Shown here: piece by piece, positions 2,034 through 62,740 of the stretch | Position numbering within the stretch: the stretch's first letter is position 1 | Layout of the letters: each line of letters starts with the position of its first letter | Assembly: GCA_964512695.1 (NCBI GenBank) | Contig: CAZEJU010000003.1 | Location: 9,897 to 73,896 of the forward strand | Direction of reading: 5' to 3' | Length of the DNA stretch: 64,000 nt | Origin: an uncultured Gammaproteobacteria bacterium | GTDB lineage: Bacteria; Patescibacteriota; Microgenomatia; Levybacterales; UBA12049 | Position numbers and translations under genes: made by a program | Notes under the pieces: model-generated | What the model was told of the DNA's origin: nothing | Databases searched by the model: none | Seen by the model: only the letters and a program-made list of their open reading frames with translations

Positions 2034-2720
2034 TTGTACTTTTTCATTTCTAAAACTACTATGTATTTTTTTCTTTTCTTTCTAGGACTATTCATACTTT
2101 TTTTCCTCTCTAAAGCAGTATCCATGCAAACCTCAATAATATTACATCGCATAACACATAATAAAACAGCTGCTATATTTCTTTTTTCCTTTCTTTTTCT
2201 TCCAGGAACTTTTGTCCATGAACTGGCTCATTTTCTTATGGCGAAGCTACTTTTTGTTCCTACTGGATCGTTCTCGTTAAAACCAGAACTTACAGGTAAC
2301 GACTTAAGACTAGGAAGAGTTATGATAGCAAAAACAGATATTATAAGGAGATTTCTCATAGGATCAGCCCCTTTCTTAGCAGGCACAGCTATTATCTTAT
2401 TAGCTACCTTTTTATTACAACAAGAAAACACTTGGAACAATCCATATTTCCTAGTATTTGTTATATTGATTATTTTCCAAATCGGTAACACAATGTTTTC
2501 TAGTAAAAAAGATATGGAGAGTATTGTACCTCTTCTGATTTTAGTAACTATACTAACAATAGTAGTGTATATAACAGGATTTCGTATAAAACTTGATCAA
2601 AACTCAATAGTATTTCTTAATGGCGTATTTAAGAAAGCAAGTTCCTTACTTCTGATACCTATTGGTATCGATATCGTATTGATATCCTGTTTATATTTGT
2701 ATAAAAGAGTACTTCAGTAA
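2034..2720 (+). CDS. polytopic membrane protein with HExxH motif; putative membrane zincin metallopeptidase (DUF3267-like)
   Basis: FVHELAHFLMA motif adjacent to a TM helix, several further TM segments. Confidence 0.5.
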   Translation: MYFFISKTTMYFFLFFLGLFILFFLSKAVSMQTSIILHRITHNKTAAIFLFSFLFLPGTFVHELAHFLMAKLLFVPTGSFSLKPELTGNDLRLGRVMIAKTDIIRRFLIGSAPFLAGTAIILLATFLLQQENTWNNPYFLVFVILIIFQIGNTMFSSKKDMESIVPLLILVTILTIVVYITGFRIKLDQNSIVFLNGVFKKASSLLLIPIGIDIVLISCLYLYKRVLQ

Positions 2721-3924: not shown

Positions 3925-4401
3925 ATGAAAAAGACAATCTTTATATGGGCTCTATTACTCTTCCTTTTCGTCGAGTTCCTTCTAGTTATTTCCCCAGGTG
4001 ATATGAAAGTAACAAATTCTAACGTTTTACCTACTCAAACTATTAATCTAGCAAGTGATCAAAAAAATAAAGAAACACAATCTCTTAAAAAAGAAATCCT
4101 TAAAGAAGGAACAGGGACAGCAGTAAAAATCGGTGATACCGCCCTCGTACATTACAAGGGAACGTTAACAGATGGAACAGAATTTGATAGTTCATTTAAG
4201 AGAAATGAACCTTTTTCTGTCACATTGGGAACAAATCAGGTTATTAAAGGCTGGGAAGAAGGTATCCCAGGAATGAAGATAGGCGAGAAACGAAAACTTA
4301 CTATTCCCCCTAGCTTAGGCTATGGTGAATCTGGTTCACCACCTGTCATCCCACCTAATGCTACACTTATTTTTGAAGTTGAGCTGATTGATATTAAATA
4401 A
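3925..4401 (+). CDS. FKBP-type peptidyl-prolyl cis-trans isomerase, secreted or membrane-anchored
   Basis: N-terminal hydrophobic signal. The FKBP core is [16 protein letters not shown]...[24 protein letters not shown]...[14 protein letters not shown]. Confidence 0.85.
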
Positions 4402-5428
4402 TTCTCTGCGTAGTTTTTTGCATAATTTGTTCTTTAATAGTTTTTTCCCTCTCACGTTTAATAGCATAATCAATGATAGCTAGAATAAAAAGATTGGGAA
4501 GTAATGTACTCAAAGCGTAAAACTGAAAACTATAAAAAAGGAAAAACTGCGTTAAAAAGATGAAAATCATCACTGCAATTTTAAATTGACTATATGCACG
4601 GAGTCGTGAAGATCTCAGTAAAAAAAATCCTTCTAAAATAAAAACTGCTGCCACCAATGCAGTTATGAGAACTCCCCATTTATCAAATGATAAATAAATA
4701 CGAGCAGCAATGCTATAAGAGATAAGACCTATCGCTAAAGCTGCTTGTAATAAAAGAAAAAATATAACAAAACGGGCAAGTAAAAAAGACTTTGTCATAA
4801 ATTGGTAAATGCTTCTTAATTTCCGACGAAATATAAGAAAATAGCCAGGTTTTTTTGGTTGTATTGCTTCAATTTTTGATAATAACTCATATAACCATTG
4901 AGCAATAGGATCACTTAAATCAGATTTCTGTAAATATTCAAAGGCAAGTCTTTCCTCCTCGACATCCAAATCATTAATCACAGCTTCCTGAGTCATATCT
5001 AAGGCGTTGATCAAATATTCTTTTTTTGAATATGCACGGTACTGAGGAATCATACGAAAAAGAAGAAAGAGTAGAATAAAAATTACGTAAATAATTGCAA
5101 CAGCTGGTTGAAAAAAATAATTATTATCGCTTGTTAAAAACTTACCTAATTCATCGATAAATGCACCGAAACCGATTCCACCAATAACTGCTGCTAGCTG
5201 CATCGCAAATCTATTAAGGAATGTTAATAAGAGAATTAATGCTGCAGTCATAAACAATCCCCCCCATAACATATGTGCAACATGTATACCTCGACCACCA
5301 AGTTGGGGATAACCTGTAATGAATAAAAAGAAACGAATTGAAAAAAGTGAGGAAATGGCAGAAACTAAAAAAATTTCTAAGAGATCATCAGCCTCGATGT
5401 TTCTTATAAATATTCCTTTTAATGACAT
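4394..5428 (-). CDS. integral membrane protein of unknown function (TM clusters at both ends, central soluble segment)
   Basis: Hydrophobicity pattern; no catalytic motif recognised. Confidence 0.45.
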
Positions 5429-6051
5429 ACCTACAGTATATCAAACTTACTCTCTTCAACTGGTTAGATTACAAAAAATGTGTTATCATTCCGATGCAAA
5501 CTATGAATAAAGCAAAAAATGAAACTCTAAAAAAACAAGCTGTTACTATCGCTTCTGAGATATCACATCTTATAACTCAATATACCCATGACAGTTTCAC
5601 CTCAAAATTCTTTCTGACCGATGAAATTGGTACAAACTTTTATATAGCAGCTGGTGGTTTTGCAGCTGTAATTTATGAACCTCAATTAGAAGCTGATGAG
5701 GTGCAAAACATTCATGCATTATCATTTTTTCTTATTCTTATTACATATGGATTCCAAATATATATTCGAGAACGTTCGCTAAGAACCAATAGCTCACCTT
5801 ACACACTACCCACAAATAAGAAAAAAATTGAAGTAGCAAATTCTGTTATCTTAGAACGAGCTGAAACAGGAAACCTGGTATCTTCTCCTCTTGCTGATGA
5901 AATAATTGAACTAACACTTATGCAAGTACAAAAAACATTACATGAAAAAGACTTTACCTTAGCTGAACACAGGTTAAATGAAAAAAAATTATACACATAT
6001 ATGACTGTATCACTGTATTTCGGTTATAATATGGCTGCAGAACTCCTCTAA
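5422..6051 (+). CDS. hypothetical protein, paralog family A (copy 1); true start probably at the internal Met near 5506
   Basis: Shares YT(H/N)DSFTSKF and I(R/K)ERS.L.N..PYTL(P/E)T blocks with the next ORF. Confidence 0.5.
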   Translation: MTYLQYIKLTLFNWLDYKKCVIIPMQTMNKAKNETLKKQAVTIASEISHLITQYTHDSFTSKFFLTDEIGTNFYIAAGGFAAVIYEPQLEADEVQNIHALSFFLILITYGFQIYIRERSLRTNSSPYTLPTNKKKIEVANSVILERAETGNLVSSPLADEIIELTLMQVQKTLHEKDFTLAEHRLNEKKLYTYMTVSLYFGYNMAAELL

Positions 6052-6173
6052 GCTCTCCCAGGTCCTCGAAAATTGGCTCTGAAACTTTGCAACTATGTAA
6101 CTCATTATAACTTCATACTTGCCAAGTGTAATTTTTCTTTTTATACTAAACATACAGGCAGAAATTACTTTCG

Positions 6174-6623
6174 ATGAAAATTTTGCCTGAACCAGCTGAC
6201 CAACAAATAATTTTAGCAACACAGATTTGGGAGGACGTCGTGCATTCGATGGGTCAGTATACAAACGATAGTTTTACTTCAAAGTTTTTACCCCCCGAAG
6301 AAATACTTACATATGTGCGCCCCATAGCATCGTCGTTTGCGCAACTTCATTACACTCCTCTACCAACAAAAAAAGAAATCTATAAATCCCATCTCTATGG
6401 AGTGTTTTATTTTCTCATTATATGTGGTATGCAAATGCATATTAAAGAACGATCAATACTAAAAAACCATGCTCCTTATACACTAGAAACTCATGAAAAA
6501 TTAATCAGAGAAGCAAAAAATCGAGTTATGAATGAACTCACCGAGGGGATAAAAGTATACCCTCCTTTAAATCACGCAATGGATATTTTCCTATCAAATG
6601 TAGCAACACCGCGAAGATTATAA
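6174..6623 (+). CDS. hypothetical protein, paralog family A (copy 2)
   Basis: Collinear similarity to 5422..6051 (QYTNDSFTSKF, HIKERSILKNHAPYTLET). Confidence 0.5.
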   Translation: MKILPEPADQQIILATQIWEDVVHSMGQYTNDSFTSKFLPPEEILTYVRPIASSFAQLHYTPLPTKKEIYKSHLYGVFYFLIICGMQMHIKERSILKNHAPYTLETHEKLIREAKNRVMNELTEGIKVYPPLNHAMDIFLSNVATPRRL

Positions 6624-6771: not shown

Positions 6772-7497
6772 ATGTCTGGAATTCATGCTATAGAATCGGG
6801 AAGAAACCTTCAGTCTTTAACAGAACCCACATCTGCTTTTTCTGTCATCTCTCTACGTCAAATTGACACCCTAAAACAGGGTCTTGAATATATTAGGGAA
6901 GAAGGCCCGAAATATCGAATACTTCCCGATTCCCATACTGCTCTAAAAGTCAGACAATATGGAACACTTTGCGATGAACATACTTTTCAAACTATAGAAA
7001 AAGGTAACTGGCGAGTAACTGTTTATGATCCTGAAGGGAAATTCAATCAAGCATACTTCACCACACCGCCAGAAGTTACATTCTTAGCACAACAGCTGAC
7101 TCCACTACAAAGATTTCGCCAACCTCCTCCTGAAGATACAAGAGCTCAAAAACATACTGCAGCACAATTATTCTTAGCTGAAAATACAAGCATTTTGGCA
7201 GAACATATTTTCTGTCAGATGGGAATAGAAAAAAAAGTAACTACTATACCGCTCCTTTTAGAACTCTGGAGTAGACCAGATTTAACTCTTTTTATACCCG
7301 ATCCACTTCTCCTTGAGATTGGATTAGGAGGTAAATTTGGAAAAGTAGAAAGGTATGTAGATGACTTTGAAAGAGTATACCCTTCTATGAAAGGACGCGT
7401 TCAGGGAGCAGTCGTTCATTACACTGTAAATGAAGAAGGGGGAAACTTACGTATATTTACATCATCACCATATACAAAGATGAAACAAGCAGCATAA
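6772..7497 (+). CDS. hypothetical protein, paralog family B (copy 1)
   Basis: Full-length collinear similarity to 7508..8197 (L.Y.R...PKY.I.P..HT...V...G........G.W.VTV.DP.G.FN.A..T..PE...LA..L...Q.F..PPE.D..AQ.HT..QLFLA.NT....E.IFC.MG). Confidence 0.55.
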   Translation: MSGIHAIESGRNLQSLTEPTSAFSVISLRQIDTLKQGLEYIREEGPKYRILPDSHTALKVRQYGTLCDEHTFQTIEKGNWRVTVYDPEGKFNQAYFTTPPEVTFLAQQLTPLQRFRQPPPEDTRAQKHTAAQLFLAENTSILAEHIFCQMGIEKKVTTIPLLLELWSRPDLTLFIPDPLLLEIGLGGKFGKVERYVDDFERVYPSMKGRVQGAVVHYTVNEEGGNLRIFTSSPYTKMKQAA

Positions 7498-7507
7498 ACA
7501 TTTAAAT

Positions 7508-8197
7508 ATGAGAACAAATGTAGAGCTAGGTTATAATTCAATAGAAACAGCAATCGTTCACGCAGACAAAAATAGGCGACAAAGATTAACAGAAGGACTA
7601 GACTATCTTCGTATGCAGATGCCTAAATACCTTATTCGTCCAGAAGGCCATACTGTTCGTGAAGTAAAAAGGTTTCATGGGACATGGCCGCAACATATTT
7701 TTGATACTGTAGGCATGGGTGGCTGGCAAGTAACGGTTATAGATCCCATTGGCCTTTTCAACCGGGCTACACTTACTCCAGCGCCAGAAATAAGCCACCT
7801 TGCAGGCGAACTAGCTATTGCTCAGGATTTTATAAAACCTCCTGAATACGATAAACATGCTCAGGAACATACGAGCGTCCAACTGTTTTTAGCTGCTAAT
7901 ACGAGAAAAATGGTTGAGAGTATCTTCTGTAATATGGGAGCTGCACCGCCAAAACATATTGCACCGTTTATTCTTGAACCAGGGCATGGACCTGATATAG
8001 TAATGCTTACTCCAGATCCATTTATTGTTGAAATAGGAAAAGAAGGTAAATTTCCTGTATTAGAAGAGTATATTAAAGAATTTCAATATCAGTATCCATA
8101 TGTAGCGGATCGTGTAACAGGAGCAGTTGTATATTATAAAAAAACAAAATCAGGTGCATCTTTAAACGTTTTTAGTAGCAGAATAGGTGTAAGCTAA
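7508..8197 (+). CDS. hypothetical protein, paralog family B (copy 2)
   Basis: Tandem duplicate of 6772..7497 after a 10-nt spacer. Confidence 0.55.
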   Translation: MRTNVELGYNSIETAIVHADKNRRQRLTEGLDYLRMQMPKYLIRPEGHTVREVKRFHGTWPQHIFDTVGMGGWQVTVIDPIGLFNRATLTPAPEISHLAGELAIAQDFIKPPEYDKHAQEHTSVQLFLAANTRKMVESIFCNMGAAPPKHIAPFILEPGHGPDIVMLTPDPFIVEIGKEGKFPVLEEYIKEFQYQYPYVADRVTGAVVYYKKTKSGASLNVFSSRIGVS

Positions 8198-10493: not shown

Positions 10494-11009
10494 TCACCTC
10501 AAGAAATTTTCTTCTTTCGGTTCTTGAATTATCTTACTAAAAATAAACTCGTCATTTCCAAACCATGATTTTTTATGGAAACCCACCATCTCAAAACCCA
10601 TTTTTTCATAAAAATTTTTATTCCTCTTATCAGCATATAAATAGAGATTATGTCCGCCTAGCTCTACTATCCTTTCTTCCCAATTTTTTAATAAATTTTT
10701 ACCTATCCCTTTTCTTCGAAATTTCGGATCTACCATAAGCCAAATAGCCAAGCTTACACCAGCAAAAGGATATTCCGCTTCTAAAAAGCCTACGAGCTCT
10801 TCATTCTTAAAAGCACCCAGCAGTATTCTTGTATGGTTTTTAAGAATGGATTCAAAATTTTCTTTGTTCCACATTCGTGGACTTGTTAGCATATACTTTT
10901 TTGATCTTGCTGAGTATTCAGCAAACTCTGCTAGTAAAACAGAAGAAAAAAAATCGAAAAAAATATCTAGCTCTGATAATGCTAGTTGTCTAATCTGCAG
11001 ATTTCTCAT
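10494..11009 (-). CDS. GNAT family N-acetyltransferase
   Basis: Acetyl-CoA binding motif VDPKFRRKGIGKNLL. Confidence 0.75.
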   Translation of the reverse strand: MRNLQIRQLALSELDIFFDFFSSVLLAEFAEYSARSKKYMLTSPRMWNKENFESILKNHTRILLGAFKNEELVGFLEAEYPFAGVSLAIWLMVDPKFRRKGIGKNLLKNWEERIVELGGHNLYLYADKRNKNFYEKMGFEMVGFHKKSWFGNDEFIFSKIIQEPKEENFLR

Positions 11010-11827
11010 TTTACCCGTTTGTTCTCTAAGAGTAAGTTTATAACAACTGCCACTCCTTCTTCTTTATACGAAGGAGCTATATAATCTGCAATTGCTTTTA
11101 ATGCTTCATTTGCATTTTCCATAGCTATTTTATAGCCACAGGCAGTCAATAGCGGGTAGTCGTTATAACCGTCCCCAATGCCAATTACTTCTTCTTCCTT
11201 CAGCCCAAGCATTTTCATTAGCAACAGTACTCCCATATGTTTTGTCGCTTTTATTGAAGTTATATCCCATCCTTTACCTGCTGGGCTACTTGAATCTATA
11301 AAAGAAAGTCTTTTCGATTTCGTGCTAAGCATCTCTTCAACTATCTTTTGCTTAGCAATATCTTTAATAGCGCTTACATGTATTTTTGGTATATCAGCAA
11401 CCACCAGATCTTTAATGTCTTTAAATATATATGGACCATATCCCTTAAATAGGAAAGCATCCGGTGTATAGGCGACATCTTTTTTTTCGACTGCGAACAT
11501 TATACCTTCTTCTAGAAACAGTTTTATTAGTTCTCTAACATCACTATCTGGCATATATTCTATATGCAATGTCTTTCCAGACTGCGGGTCGACTATTTCA
11601 GCACCACCGCGCGTTATAATAGGATTTGTTAGAGCAAGAAGCCTACATGTTTGTTGCAGTATTCCTGGAAATGCTCTTCCAGAAGCAATTGAAAAAATAG
11701 ATTGAGAGTCTACCCATCGTTTAATCGCAGCTTTTACCTTTAATGGAATCTGAAAGTCTGAACCTGCTAGTGTTCCATCGAAGTCGCTTATGATGGCTTT
11801 ATACTTTTTTGAATTTTGAAGATTCAT
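11006..11827 (-). CDS. Cof-type HAD-IIB family hydrolase (sugar phosphatase-like)
   Basis: Motif I AIISDFDGTL, motif IV GIGDGYNDYPLL, YbiV/Cof-like length. Confidence 0.8.
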   Translation of the reverse strand: MNLQNSKKYKAIISDFDGTLAGSDFQIPLKVKAAIKRWVDSQSIFSIASGRAFPGILQQTCRLLALTNPIITRGGAEIVDPQSGKTLHIEYMPDSDVRELIKLFLEEGIMFAVEKKDVAYTPDAFLFKGYGPYIFKDIKDLVVADIPKIHVSAIKDIAKQKIVEEMLSTKSKRLSFIDSSSPAGKGWDITSIKATKHMGVLLLMKMLGLKEEEVIGIGDGYNDYPLLTACGYKIAMENANEALKAIADYIAPSYKEEGVAVVINLLLENKRVK

Positions 11828-19822: not shown

Positions 19823-20266
19823 CTATACTTTGTTTTCTATACTGCCACCAGCTTTTATTATTTTATCAGCAGCGGATTGTGAAACAGGAACTTTTACAGT
19901 TAAAGGGTTATTTACAGTACCATGGCCCAAAAGCTTTACACCCACTTTTCGTGCATTTTCTTCTACTATTTTCATCTTTATAAGTGTATCTACGTCTACT
20001 GTACCTTTTGCTGGAATTCTTGCTAAATCATGTAGGTTCAACACATATGGCTTTAACCCCCTGGCTTTATTACGAAGCTTACCTCGTAAAAAAGGCATTC
20101 TTTTTACTAATGGAAGAGCTCCACCTTCAAATCGTAACGGGACAGAATTTCTTGCTTTCTGACCTTTTGTACCCCGGCCTCCTGTCTTTCCACGGCCTGA
20201 ACCATGACCTAAACCAAGTCTTTTCTTATTTCTCTGTACTACTGATGGCAATGTATGAAGTTCCAT
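19823..20266 (-). CDS. rplO: 50S ribosomal protein L15
   Basis: RLGLGHGSGRGKTGGRGTKGQKAR. Confidence 0.9.
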   Translation of the reverse strand: MELHTLPSVVQRNKKRLGLGHGSGRGKTGGRGTKGQKARNSVPLRFEGGALPLVKRMPFLRGKLRNKARGLKPYVLNLHDLARIPAKGTVDVDTLIKMKIVEENARKVGVKLLGHGTVNNPLTVKVPVSQSAADKIIKAGGSIENKV

Positions 20267-20784
20267 TATTTCTTTTTCTCCTTTTTATCTAATCTCATTC
20301 GTTCATACTGATGAGCAACTTGTCGAAGCGCTTCCATCGTAGCATAAACATTATTCGCCTGATTCTTTGTGCCTAATACTTTGCTTGAGATATTTTGGAT
20401 TCCCGCTGCCGCAACGACACTTCTTACTGCTCCGCCAGCGATAATACCTGATCCTGGAGGTGCTGGCTTTAACATGATCTTCGCTGCACCATGCTTTACA
20501 TCGATTCTTAATGGAATAGTACCATTAATAATTGGTACTGTTATCATATGTTTTTTCGCTAAAATAATTCCTTTTCGAATAGCTGAAGATACATCCATTG
20601 CTTTACCTAAACCAATTCCTACTTTACCATTTTTATCTCCCACTACAGCTAAAGCAGCAAATCCCATCTTATTACCGCCCTTTGTTTTTTTCGATACACG
20701 GTTAATGTTTACTACTTGTTCTGAGAAGCCATTAAGCATTTCAGCTTCTTTTTGTATATTTTTATTCGTGTTTTTATTATTCAT
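20266..20784 (-). CDS. rpsE: 30S ribosomal protein S5
   Basis: VNINRVSKKTKGGNKMGFAALAVVGDKNGKVGIGLGKA. Directly abuts rplO, so there is no rpmD. Confidence 0.9.
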   Translation of the reverse strand: MNNKNTNKNIQKEAEMLNGFSEQVVNINRVSKKTKGGNKMGFAALAVVGDKNGKVGIGLGKAMDVSSAIRKGIILAKKHMITVPIINGTIPLRIDVKHGAAKIMLKPAPPGSGIIAGGAVRSVVAAAGIQNISSKVLGTKNQANNVYATMEALRQVAHQYERMRLDKKEKKK

Positions 20785-32788: not shown

Positions 32789-33094
32789 TTATATAACCAC
32801 TGAAACTAAATCTATCGCTGTATGTCCTCCAGTTGAAAAAACTATCGCTTTAATAGATGTATCTTGTAACATTTTATGAAAATCAGTAATTCGGTCTTCT
32901 GTGGTACCTGATGAGTAATACTGTCTTCCTAATGTGTGTGAACCTAGTACAATCTCTACTTCTAAACGTTCAGAAAAAGCTTTAACAGCAGCAAAGAATT
33001 CTTCTTTTCTATGCTGAATAGTATTTGAAGGAGAAATAATACCTACTTTGTCACCTTTTCTTAGTCTTGGTGGGATAAAAACATTCATGAGCAA
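32789..33094 (-). pseudogene. N-terminal fragment of a peptidase S66 (LD-carboxypeptidase)-like protein, about 100 of an expected 300 aa
   Basis: PPRLRKGDKVGIISPS...TEDRITDFHKMLQDTSIKAIVFSTGGH matches the S66 N-terminal domain. The catalytic C-terminal domain is absent. Confidence 0.4.
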
Positions 33095-60867: not shown

Positions 60868-61404
60868 CTATGATTTAATTTTATACACATATATTTTCTG
60901 AATTTTATCATGTCTTACTAATGGTAAATAGCTTATTGGATAAATATAGCTAATCACTCTTGTACCCGGCTTTAGTTCTTTTACTAACTTCTTTTTCAAC
61001 TTTGTAATAACTCTTGGAACTAAGTAAAGGTAAACAACTGAAGCAGGGGAGAGGTCTACACTAAAAAAGTCCTTTCTAAGAAATGTAACTTTATCTCGAG
61101 GAATATTGTTTTTTTTAGCTTTCATTTTTGACCACCATATCCGAGATTTACTTGATTCAACTCCAACTGCAGTTGCTCCAAATTCTTTAACTATAGTAAC
61201 TATGGTTGTTCCTGTACCTGAGCCTAACTCATAAAAAATATCTCTTTTAGTTATACGTGCTAATCTACCTATTTCTCGTGAAACTTCTGTTGAAGTGGAC
61301 CACCAGGGTGACCAAGGACTATCCGTGGGAAGAAACCATGTTAATAGGTAAAGAACAATAAGAATTGCTATTAATACAAATATTTGAGTAACAATAAAAA
61401 CCAT
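60868..61404 (-). CDS. small membrane-anchored SAM-dependent methyltransferase
   Basis: N-terminal TM, YELGSGTGTTIV motif I. Confidence 0.5.
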   Translation of the reverse strand: MVFIVTQIFVLIAILIVLYLLTWFLPTDSPWSPWWSTSTEVSREIGRLARITKRDIFYELGSGTGTTIVTIVKEFGATAVGVESSKSRIWWSKMKAKKNNIPRDKVTFLRKDFFSVDLSPASVVYLYLVPRVITKLKKKLVKELKPGTRVISYIYPISYLPLVRHDKIQKIYVYKIKS

Positions 61405-61454: not shown

Positions 61455-61784
61455 TTATTTATCTATTTTTTGTCGACTACTTTTATTTTTTTTAAAAATG
61501 TTAATTACTTTTGCTTTTATATTGTTCCTCTCCACTAAACCAAACACTTTACTATCCGTACTTCTAGATACATTATCACCTATAAGGAAAAATTTCTTAT
61601 TTTTTATGTCAGCTAATCTTTTTATTATAGGACGTTTATCTCTCGGGTCTTCACATAGTATCAAATCTCCTATTTCAGGATTTTTAAAAAAGTAGGGAAG
61701 AGGGGAGACTAGTACGATATCTCCAGGGTTCAGTGTTGGTATCATACTATTACCAGTAACTGTACATTTTTTTAAAATAAACAT
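61455..61784 (-). CDS. sodX: S26 signal-peptidase-like protease, probable NiSOD maturation peptidase SodX
   Basis: GNSMIPTL (catalytic Ser), IKRL (catalytic Lys box), GDNVSRSTDSKVFG. No TM helix. Immediately downstream of sodN. Confidence 0.65.
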   Translation of the reverse strand: MFILKKCTVTGNSMIPTLNPGDIVLVSPLPYFFKNPEIGDLILCEDPRDKRPIIKRLADIKNKKFFLIGDNVSRSTDSKVFGLVERNNIKAKVINIFKKNKSSRQKIDK

Positions 61785-61889
61785 TTTCTATAAAATTGTG
61801 TAAATACGTGATACTTTAACTCATTTTACTATGATATTACGTAATTTCGTGAAAAATTGATAAAAAATATAGTAAATATTTCACAGGGG

Positions 61890-62330
61890 CTATTTAGCAG
61901 TCGCTTTCGTCTGGTGAAAAATATCTGCTATTTCATCCACTGCCCTGACTAATTCCTGAGCAGCTTCTTTATTCACTTCTTGCTTATTTTTCGAGACTAG
62001 TTTCATTGCTTTCCAAAATTTATCGTGTAAATGGGGAAATTTTTCGAGGTGTTCAGGCTTAAAATAATCAGCCCATAATATCATAAGTTCTTCTTTACAT
62101 TTCCGTCCATGCTCTTCTTTCGTCCAAATAGCTCTTATTAATTTATTTCTATCGTTTAGCGATTTAGTTGATTGGTCAACACTTTCAATAATCTCAACCA
62201 TTTTTAATATAGTGGCAGCAGCATTCTGTGCTATTCCCGGATCATATATACCACAAGGAACATCACAATGTGCATATACAGTTTCTGAAGGAAGAAAATT
62301 TATGACTTTACGTAATATAGTATGAAACAT
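61890..62330 (-). CDS. sodN: nickel-containing superoxide dismutase precursor
   Basis: Ni-hook HCDVPCGIYDP directly after a 20-aa propeptide. LWADYFKPEHLEKFPHLH block conserved with Streptomyces NiSOD. Confidence 0.85.
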   Translation of the reverse strand: MFHTILRKVINFLPSETVYAHCDVPCGIYDPGIAQNAAATILKMVEIIESVDQSTKSLNDRNKLIRAIWTKEEHGRKCKEELMILWADYFKPEHLEKFPHLHDKFWKAMKLVSKNKQEVNKEAAQELVRAVDEIADIFHQTKATAK

Positions 62331-62740
62331 AGACCTACCTTACAATATACAATTCTATATGTCAATACATTTAATAACATCATATGCTTAAACCGTACTA
62401 TCCTCACCTGTTTAGCAAACCACTATGGTGTTTGATCAGCTATTATCTACTACTAACTATATCAAAATAATCGTTTCTATATTTTCGTATTTTTTTCATT
62501 TTACAAGCAGTTGACTATATATTAAGAAAGATAATAGTTATCCACATTTCTTTTCTTATCTTTCAGGTCGTACAATATTTTTAGCTTACTCGCAGAGTAG
62601 AGAAGTTTATTGTAGTAAACAACATTTTATACAATCACTATATATAGATCTCATTTCTTTACACATCAATACCCCACCCTTTTCCCTATCCTTTATTCCC
62701 TACTCTCATATTGACGCTCTTCTAGATAATTTGGTACGCT

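Follow-up and report, generated by a model that had tools for sequence, protein, structure and literature searches.

A predicted sodN-sodX module for nickel superoxide dismutase on a Levybacteria contig of the candidate phyla radiation

Active nickel superoxide dismutase (NiSOD) arises when its precursor, SodN, is cut by the cognate peptidase SodX (PMC3919588). In Streptomyces, the conserved region between sodN and sodX contains the 5' end of the sodN mRNA (PMC3919588); sodX therefore lies upstream of sodN in that genus. Marine cyanobacteria (Prochlorococcus, Synechococcus) carry the cluster sodT-sodN-sodX, in which sodN is again grouped with its cognate sodX, the peptidase is needed for active enzyme, and a permease gene, sodT, stands beside the pair (PMC4284471). 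In Patescibacteria, NiSOD clades nest among Chloroflexota sequences, and at least three transfers of NiSOD into the group, followed by onward passage to Woesearchaea, have been proposed (Sutherland, Ward and co-workers; bioRxiv 10.1101/2021.01.12.426412). Among groundwater Patescibacteria, 66-83% of genomes are reported to have Fe/Mn superoxide dismutase genes (PMC8672522). The pair analysed here lies in a 64-kb stretch of DNA, referred to below as the window. As in the cyanobacteria, sodN and a cognate sodX are clustered; both ORFs are on the minus strand, with sodN read from 62330 to 61890, followed after a gap of 105 bp by sodX from 61784 to 61455. Unlike in Streptomyces, sodX is downstream of sodN, on the same strand. 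The original prediction had placed both genes at the correct coordinates and gave no strand for them. The features discussed below are as follows.

61890..62330, minus strand: sodN, predicted NiSOD precursor of 146 aa (PF09055, TIGR02753, PDB chain matches, AF2 model)
62271..62330, minus strand: codons of the predicted 20-residue propeptide MFHTILRKVINFLPSETVYA, with a final V-Y-A before His21 (alignment with mature crystal chains)
62244..62270, minus strand: codons of the Ni-hook H21-C-D-V-P-C-G-I-Y29, corresponding to mature His1, Cys2, Cys6 and Tyr9 (invariance in alignments)
61455..61784, minus strand: sodX, predicted soluble S26-type NiSOD maturation peptidase of 109 aa (TIGR02754, PF10502, no transmembrane segment, gene order)
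61746..61748, minus strand: codon of the predicted nucleophile Ser13, in GNSM (alignment with the signal peptidase I S-M box)
61620..61622, minus strand: codon of the predicted general base Lys55, in IIKRL (alignment with the signal peptidase I K-R box)
62337..62365, minus strand: promoter-like TTGACA-17 nt-TAAGGT (read from the sequence; block conserved in the Levyibacteriota locus L001)
60868..61404, minus strand: membrane-anchored class I SAM methyltransferase of 178 aa, a candidate co-transcribed neighbour (position, weak domain matches)

Profile searches had been proposed for both ORFs and were run. SodN scored 149.1 bits against PF09055 (cutoff 25; model positions 2-127 of 127; E=1e-43) and 157.4 bits against the sodN equivalog TIGR02753 (cutoff 90; model positions 1-144 of 145; E=3e-46). 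Together with the E=5e-22 obtained for SodX against TIGR02754, these values exclude chance as the source of the matches. In phmmer alignments, residues 21-142 of SodN were paired with residues 1-115 of the mature Streptomyces NiSOD chains 1q0d and 1t6q/1t6u (E=3e-18). His21 fell opposite residue 1 of these crystal chains and is therefore taken as His1, with predicted cleavage between Ala20 and His21. The hook HCDVPCGIY occupies residues 21-29, directly after the 20-residue leader, exactly as had been claimed from the sequence. The block said to be common to actinobacterial NiSOD was also recovered, LWADYFKPEHLEKFPHLH of the window aligning with LWSDYFKPPHFESYPELH of Streptomyces. Within the hook, H, C, D, P, C, G and Y were invariant in all 82 aligned sequences and likewise in 37 close relatives; Arg39, Trp59 and Asp61 were invariant across the 82-sequence alignment, and Tyr62 and Lys64 nearly so. 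Each of these conserved residues, including Asp3 and Tyr9 of the hook, is present in the window protein. Read from the sequence, the leader has no hydrophobic core of sufficient length for a Sec signal, and leaders in the relatives span 7-20 residues and nearly always have a terminal V-Y-A or similar. An AF2 model built with the 37 relatives as input (mean pLDDT 87.8) was helical from residue 32; in Foldseek, all 16 PDB matches with E<=0.001 were NiSOD (1t6u, 1q0d, 3g50 and others), with target-normalised TM scores of 0.86-0.90. Judged by its profile matches, active-site residues and modelled fold, the ORF at 61890-62330 encodes a real NiSOD precursor.

Comparison with the Streptomyces coelicolor and S. 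seoulensis enzymes (SodN structures 1t6u and 1q0d, with SodX; SCO5254/SCO5255) showed the same H-C-D-x-P-C-G-x-Y hook, together with Asp3, Tyr9, Tyr62, Lys64 and a shared W-x-D-Y-F-K-P block. The right-handed four-helix bundle of the Streptomyces enzyme was matched by the window model at 32-37% sequence identity. In both systems a propeptide with a terminal small residue is removed by a dedicated S26 peptidase, in the window by prediction (PMC3919588 for Streptomyces). Several features of the window protein depart from the Streptomyces form. The connection between helix 1 and helix 2 is longer, opening a gap of 7 residues when the two sequences are aligned; in the second sphere around His1, Ala/His stands in place of Glu17/Arg47, as in 50-59 of the 82 relatives; and there is an additional Cys at mature position 58, which all 37 close relatives have and the Streptomyces chains lack. 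The leader differs as well, having 20 residues in the window against the 14 of Streptomyces SodN. Identity to cyanobacterial SodN was 43-44%.

The downstream gene had been described as a same-strand S26 homologue free of transmembrane segments and carrying GNSM.PTL and KRL boxes, and these elements were found: GNSMIPTL with Ser13, IIKRL with Lys55, and GDNVSRSTDS with GDN at residue 69. The highest 19-residue Kyte-Doolittle mean of the protein was 0.94, relative to a threshold of 1.6 used here, and it therefore has no transmembrane segment or membrane anchor. Its identification as SodX was borne out by the profile of the NiSOD maturation protease, TIGR02754 (78.3 bits, cutoff 63.25), which ranked first among the S26 models, ahead of the generic signal peptidase I model TIGR02227 (69.2 bits, cutoff 47), PF10502 (65.8 bits) and the archaeal TIGR02228 (30.6 bits). 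Since the generic model was also passed, the assignment rests on the better SodX score, the lack of an anchor and the gene context. The best structural matches of the AF2 model, which is of lower confidence (pLDDT 66), were the signal peptidases SpsB and SipA. A word-index search gave three SodX relatives, and Lys55 was invariant in a 3-sequence SodX alignment. Further relatives were drawn from sodN loci by tblastn; in these, the G-x-S-M box lies 8-12 residues past the start, and of 26 SodX ORFs inspected from Patescibacteria and DPANN, 25 had a K-R-[ILV] box. The S-M, K-R and GDN boxes are all conserved in the Patescibacteria relatives.

These data also bear on whether the gene is a housekeeping signal peptidase I (LepB) that lies next to sodN by coincidence. 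The passing scores for TIGR02227 and PF10502 would agree with that explanation, as would the fact that no second S26 gene was seen in the 64-kb window. It is, however, poorly compatible with an anchorless protein of only 109 aa whose best-scoring model is the NiSOD maturation protease, and with an adjacency to sodN that recurs in 23 of 26 Patescibacteria loci, all three DPANN loci and most other archaeal loci. S26 peptidases favour small residues at positions -3 and -1, and the V-Y-A end of the SodN propeptide fits this rule. A coincidental LepB is consequently considered highly improbable, and the ORF at 61455-61784 is, on its profile scores, a SodX-type S26 maturation peptidase that lacks a membrane anchor, with a predicted role in cleaving the propeptide.

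The region around the two genes was inspected for further elements. A putative promoter-like element, TTGACA and TAAGGT separated by 17 nt, has its 3' end 6 nt ahead of the sodN ATG, a spacing under which the sodN mRNA may be leaderless. The block is kept in the Levyibacteriota locus L001, in which the Shine-Dalgarno-like bases are not kept; because its -10 hexamer is weak, the element was absent from the consensus-scan list. A search of the sodN-sodX gap for a terminator or hairpin found none. A replication origin 5' of sodN was considered as well, on account of one perfect DnaA-box 9-mer, but the counts allowing one mismatch were at chance level (20 versus 19.8) and GC skew showed no switch, and this reading was rejected. 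Rfam and tRNA scans detected no rRNA or tRNA genes in the 64-kb window.

The affiliation of the host was examined through the remaining genes. In the ribosomal operon of the window, S5 (20266-20784) abuts L15 (19823-20266), the L30 gene being absent between them; absence of L30 at this position is a hallmark of the candidate phyla radiation, as Brown and colleagues reportedly noted in 2015. The best species-representative relative was Levyibacteriota JAYRIM010000023, whose SodN, UvrD, VWA protein and methyltransferase are 80%, 82%, 64% and 65% identical, respectively, to those of the window. The shared gene order, sodN-sodX-methyltransferase, then FemAB-UvrD-TIM-LytR-DUF2298-epimerase, recurs in JAYRIM010000023, in PJMG01000022 and in Levybacteria RIFCSPLOWO2_01_FULL_39_24 (MFOW01000002). 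In L001, SET-domain and TPR genes separate the methyltransferase from FemAB; these are missing from the window. The lineage was confirmed as placing Levyibacteriota in the Microgenomates group of Patescibacteria. The earlier description of the genome as CPR-like is thus upheld by the ribosomal operon and the synteny, which assign the contig to the candidate phyla radiation, namely to Levybacteria (Microgenomates).

The same observations address the explanation that the genes are inactive relics, or that the contig was mis-binned from an organism outside the candidate phyla radiation. Such an explanation draws on the metagenomic origin of the assembly and on the public sodX gene call (P0122), a protein of 96 aa that starts at Met14 (MIPTL) and lacks the catalytic Ser13. 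That call starts 13 codons too late and so drops the catalytic serine; the longer, 109-aa start restores Ser13 and agrees with TIGR02754, position 1 of which falls at protein residue 7. Both ORFs are intact and hold all catalytic residues, the contig that bears them also carries the ribosomal operon without L30 and the Levyibacteriota synteny, and the sodX-methyltransferase-FemAB stretch was independently assembled in a 2-kb Logan contig from SRR11524805. We therefore regard decay or mis-binning as having very little probability.

The original prediction considered a complete sodN-sodX pair unexpected in an organism of this type, a view that the database comparison did not sustain. The SodN homologue search gave 2468 matches, the best 120 of which were all 61-100% identical; among those 120, every named one was a "superoxide dismutase, Ni" from Levybacteria, Saccharimonadales or the Patescibacteria group. 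An identical SodN (100%; P0001) is already in NCBI. The best 80 species-representative loci included 26 from Patescibacteria and three from DPANN archaea. In 23 of these 26 Patescibacteria loci, sodX was located directly 3' of sodN, within 400 bp and on the same strand; the same layout was found in 3/3 DPANN and 7/8 other archaeal loci. The public Patescibacteria and Levybacteria NiSOD proteins fall in the same clade as that of the window (61-80% identity), with the same sodN-sodX order and, in the three Levybacteria genomes named above, the same neighbourhood, and nothing of substance distinguishes them from it. The pair is already known in Patescibacteria, where it is routinely annotated and has been published (10.1101/2021.01.12.426412).

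A phylogeny had also been proposed, with Actinobacteria or Cyanobacteria suggested as donors. A distance-based neighbour-joining tree with 200 bootstraps was built from approximately 137 columns; finer detail would need likelihood analysis. Mature window SodN was 37% identical to the Streptomyces sequence, 43-44% to cyanobacterial sequences, up to 56% to Chloroflexota, 52-54% to some DPANN and Thaumarchaeota sequences and 63-85% to Levybacteria. The window protein and that of L001 were paired in 100% of the bootstrap replicates, and a four-member Levybacteria-type clade had bootstrap support of only 43.5%. A split with 98.5% support separated a large Saccharimonadales clade plus Streptomyces from the rest, the window lying on the side of the rest. 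The residue pattern tracks this split: Glu17/Arg47 occurs in Streptomyces and the large Saccharimonadales clade, which has no insertion after helix 1, and Ala17/His47 in the window and most others. Two types of NiSOD are therefore present in Patescibacteria. With its Ala17/His47 pair and its insertion, the window protein is, on alignment evidence, a NiSOD outside the actinobacterial subclade and not close to the cyanobacterial sequences; within the family it falls in the half that is of Chloroflexota type and not actinobacterial.

Recent transfer of the module from Actinobacteria or Cyanobacteria would be in keeping with a NiSOD phylogeny known to be full of inter-phylum transfers (10.1101/2021.01.12.426412), and the separate large Saccharimonadales clade does group with Streptomyces-type NiSOD and keeps its residue pair. 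The window protein does not share this placement: it is on the other side of the 98.5%-supported split, and its identities to Streptomyces and cyanobacteria are well below those to Chloroflexota and Levybacteria. Moreover, the GC content of the sodN region matches the remainder of the window, and the chromosomal position of sodN, like the set of genes that flank it, is shared by at least four Levybacteria genomes; the copy is therefore an old acquisition, inherited vertically. Recent transfer from these donors is accordingly judged very unlikely, though slightly less so than a coincidental LepB, and neither suggested donor is supported. The window sodN is not a recent import and not a contaminant.

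The uptake of nickel, which had been read from the presence of NiSOD, received a divided answer. That the cell needs nickel is a reasonable deduction from the enzyme. As to the route of entry, when about 65 ORFs of the window were compared with Pfam, no NiCoT, NikA-E, CbiMNQO, HupE/UreJ, UreH/SodT or CorA transporter was found, and the sole recognised transporter in the 64-kb window was an EamA protein. Unlike the cyanobacterial cluster with its sodT, the window has no SodT/UreH-type or other nickel permease adjoining sodN. None was seen beside sodN in the relatives either, among the 25 families listed of the 65 matched for 83 neighbour ORFs at the 26 Patescibacteria loci; TrmD, KhpA, MFS and ABC-2 were among those listed. 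Two polytopic membrane proteins of the window were not assigned to any family: the protein at 2034-2720 contains an HExxH motif and matched M50 very weakly, and the one at 4394-5428 had no match in the scans.

The methyltransferase gene starts 50 bp past sodX on the same strand and may be co-transcribed with it, as a candidate third member of the module. The protein gave weak matches to DOT1 and Methyltransf_25 and scored 87 bits against an archaeal protein-lysine methyltransferase model, below the cutoff of 200. A homologue comes next after sodX at several related loci (L001/L083, L003, L081/L082 and L002). Two more speculative readings were drawn from the gene order kept in related genomes and from the residue patterns. 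In one, Levybacteria would have a three-gene module of sodN, sodX and the membrane-anchored DOT1-like methyltransferase, whose gene always comes after sodX there. In the other, NiSOD with Ala17/His47 and the extra cysteine would be a distinct biochemical subclass using a not-yet-recognised nickel importer, an idea suggested because known nickel transporters are not linked to such NiSOD. We consider these options unlikely, if somewhat less so than the alternatives discussed above.

The best explanation, to which we assign a probability of roughly 90%, is that a Levybacteria genome (Microgenomates, candidate phyla radiation) carries a standard two-gene NiSOD module. What the analysis observed directly is family membership, every residue of the hook and of the catalytic sites, the fold, the lack of an anchor and the conserved gene order. 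From the sequence we infer propeptide cleavage, nickel loading, hexamer formation and superoxide dismutase activity, which would proceed as follows. The sodN gene would be translated as a 146-residue cytoplasmic precursor, which SodX, a minimal S26 serine peptidase that is soluble and uses a Ser13/Lys55 dyad, would cut past Ala20 (V-Y-A|H), leaving His21 as the new N-terminus. His1 would then contribute its free amine to nickel binding, Cys2 both its backbone amide and its thiolate, and Cys6 its thiolate; in the Ni(III) state the imidazole of His1 would be the axial ligand. The four-helix-bundle SodN, a hexamer in Streptomyces, would dismutate superoxide through Ni(II)/Ni(III) cycling. The observation underlying the original prediction was thus confirmed and its functional assignment is well supported; the claim of novelty and the suggested donor lineages are not.

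The significance of the pair goes little past correct annotation. For the organism, it means that the Levybacteria population sampled here is equipped with a superoxide defence dependent on nickel instead of iron or manganese, which agrees with published evidence that many bacteria of the candidate phyla radiation meet oxygen.

The length of sodX, the gene for the predicted S26-type maturation peptidase downstream of the nickel superoxide dismutase (NiSOD) gene sodN, depended on the choice of start codon.

61743-61784, minus strand: 5' segment of sodX with alternative starts (public call versus 109-aa call)

The public record (P0122) is a 96-aa protein starting at Met14, and the predicted catalytic Ser13 is therefore missing from it. 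Starting at 61784 gave a 109-aa protein in which the GNSM box was regained and which matched the NiSOD maturation-protease model TIGR02754 from position 1. The lengths of the gene calls also differed among relatives (81, 94 and 99 aa).

Two positions of SodN were compared for cysteines.

62097-62099, minus strand: codon for Cys78 (mature Cys58)
61995-61997, minus strand: codon for residue 112

The former was invariant among 37 close relatives, whereas the Streptomyces NiSOD lacks a matching cysteine. Position 112 was occupied by a second, nearly invariant cysteine among the relatives, and by valine in the window and in the Levyibacteriota locus L001.

Conserved DNA was also found on the upstream side of sodN.

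62337-62365, minus strand: TTGACA-17 nt-TAAGGT element, its 3' edge 6 nt ahead of the sodN ATG
62440-62600: region between sodN and the VWA protein gene, with blocks shared with L001

The TTGACA/TAAGGT element was also kept in L001 (about 5960-6000), unlike the Shine-Dalgarno-like bases preceding sodN; judged from sequence, this pattern would fit a leaderless sodN transcript. The intergenic region was nearly identical to L001 in blocks of 14-33 nt, whereas the flanking proteins were only 64-80% identical. These blocks contained the only perfect DnaA-box 9-mer of the window (62538-62546, plus strand) and a possible 18-codon ORF (62499→62443, minus strand; MKKIRKYRNDYFDIVSSR). A replication origin at 62440-62600 was rejected, because neither a DnaA-box cluster nor a GC-skew switch was found there.

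Several further features of the window were annotated.

19823-20784, minus strand: ribosomal S5 and L15 genes, overlapping by 1 base
32789-33094, minus strand: 101-aa ORF, putative LD-carboxypeptidase (Peptidase_S66) fragment
5422-6623 and 6772-8197, plus strand: two tandem pairs of paralogous ORFs
2034-2720, plus strand: multi-pass membrane protein, 6 predicted helices, HELAH motif
4394-5428, minus strand: multi-pass membrane protein, 7 predicted helices

No L30 gene separates S5 from L15, the arrangement of ribosomal genes that is characteristic of the candidate phyla radiation. The Peptidase_S66 ORF looks like a truncated remnant, as it matched the N-terminal domain alone and the next gene encodes an unrelated HAD/NT5C-like protein. 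The paralogous ORFs shared motifs such as T-x-DSFTSKF and PKY-x-I/L-x-P-x-x-HT, with no Pfam match. Neither membrane protein had a significant family match (the first matched M50 protease very weakly), and these two are the sole candidates for an unrecognised transporter in the window.

A methyltransferase gene followed sodX in all Levybacteria loci and in one contig labelled Saccharimonadales.

60868-61404, minus strand: DOT1-like methyltransferase with one N-terminal TM helix, resembling archaeal lysine methyltransferase
L001 6842-7369, L003 6756-7304, L081 about 10850-11266, L002 6809-7186: homologues at relatives' sodN loci

At locus L083, the methyltransferase was followed by a SET-domain protein. 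The sodX-methyltransferase adjacency may stem from common descent instead of a functional link. At the loci of the large Saccharimonadales clade (L050-L080), sodN-sodX was directly preceded by the housekeeping genes khpA and trmD, and the NiSOD was of the Streptomyces type (Glu17/Arg47). The NiSOD of this clade is a second, separate type among Patescibacteria.
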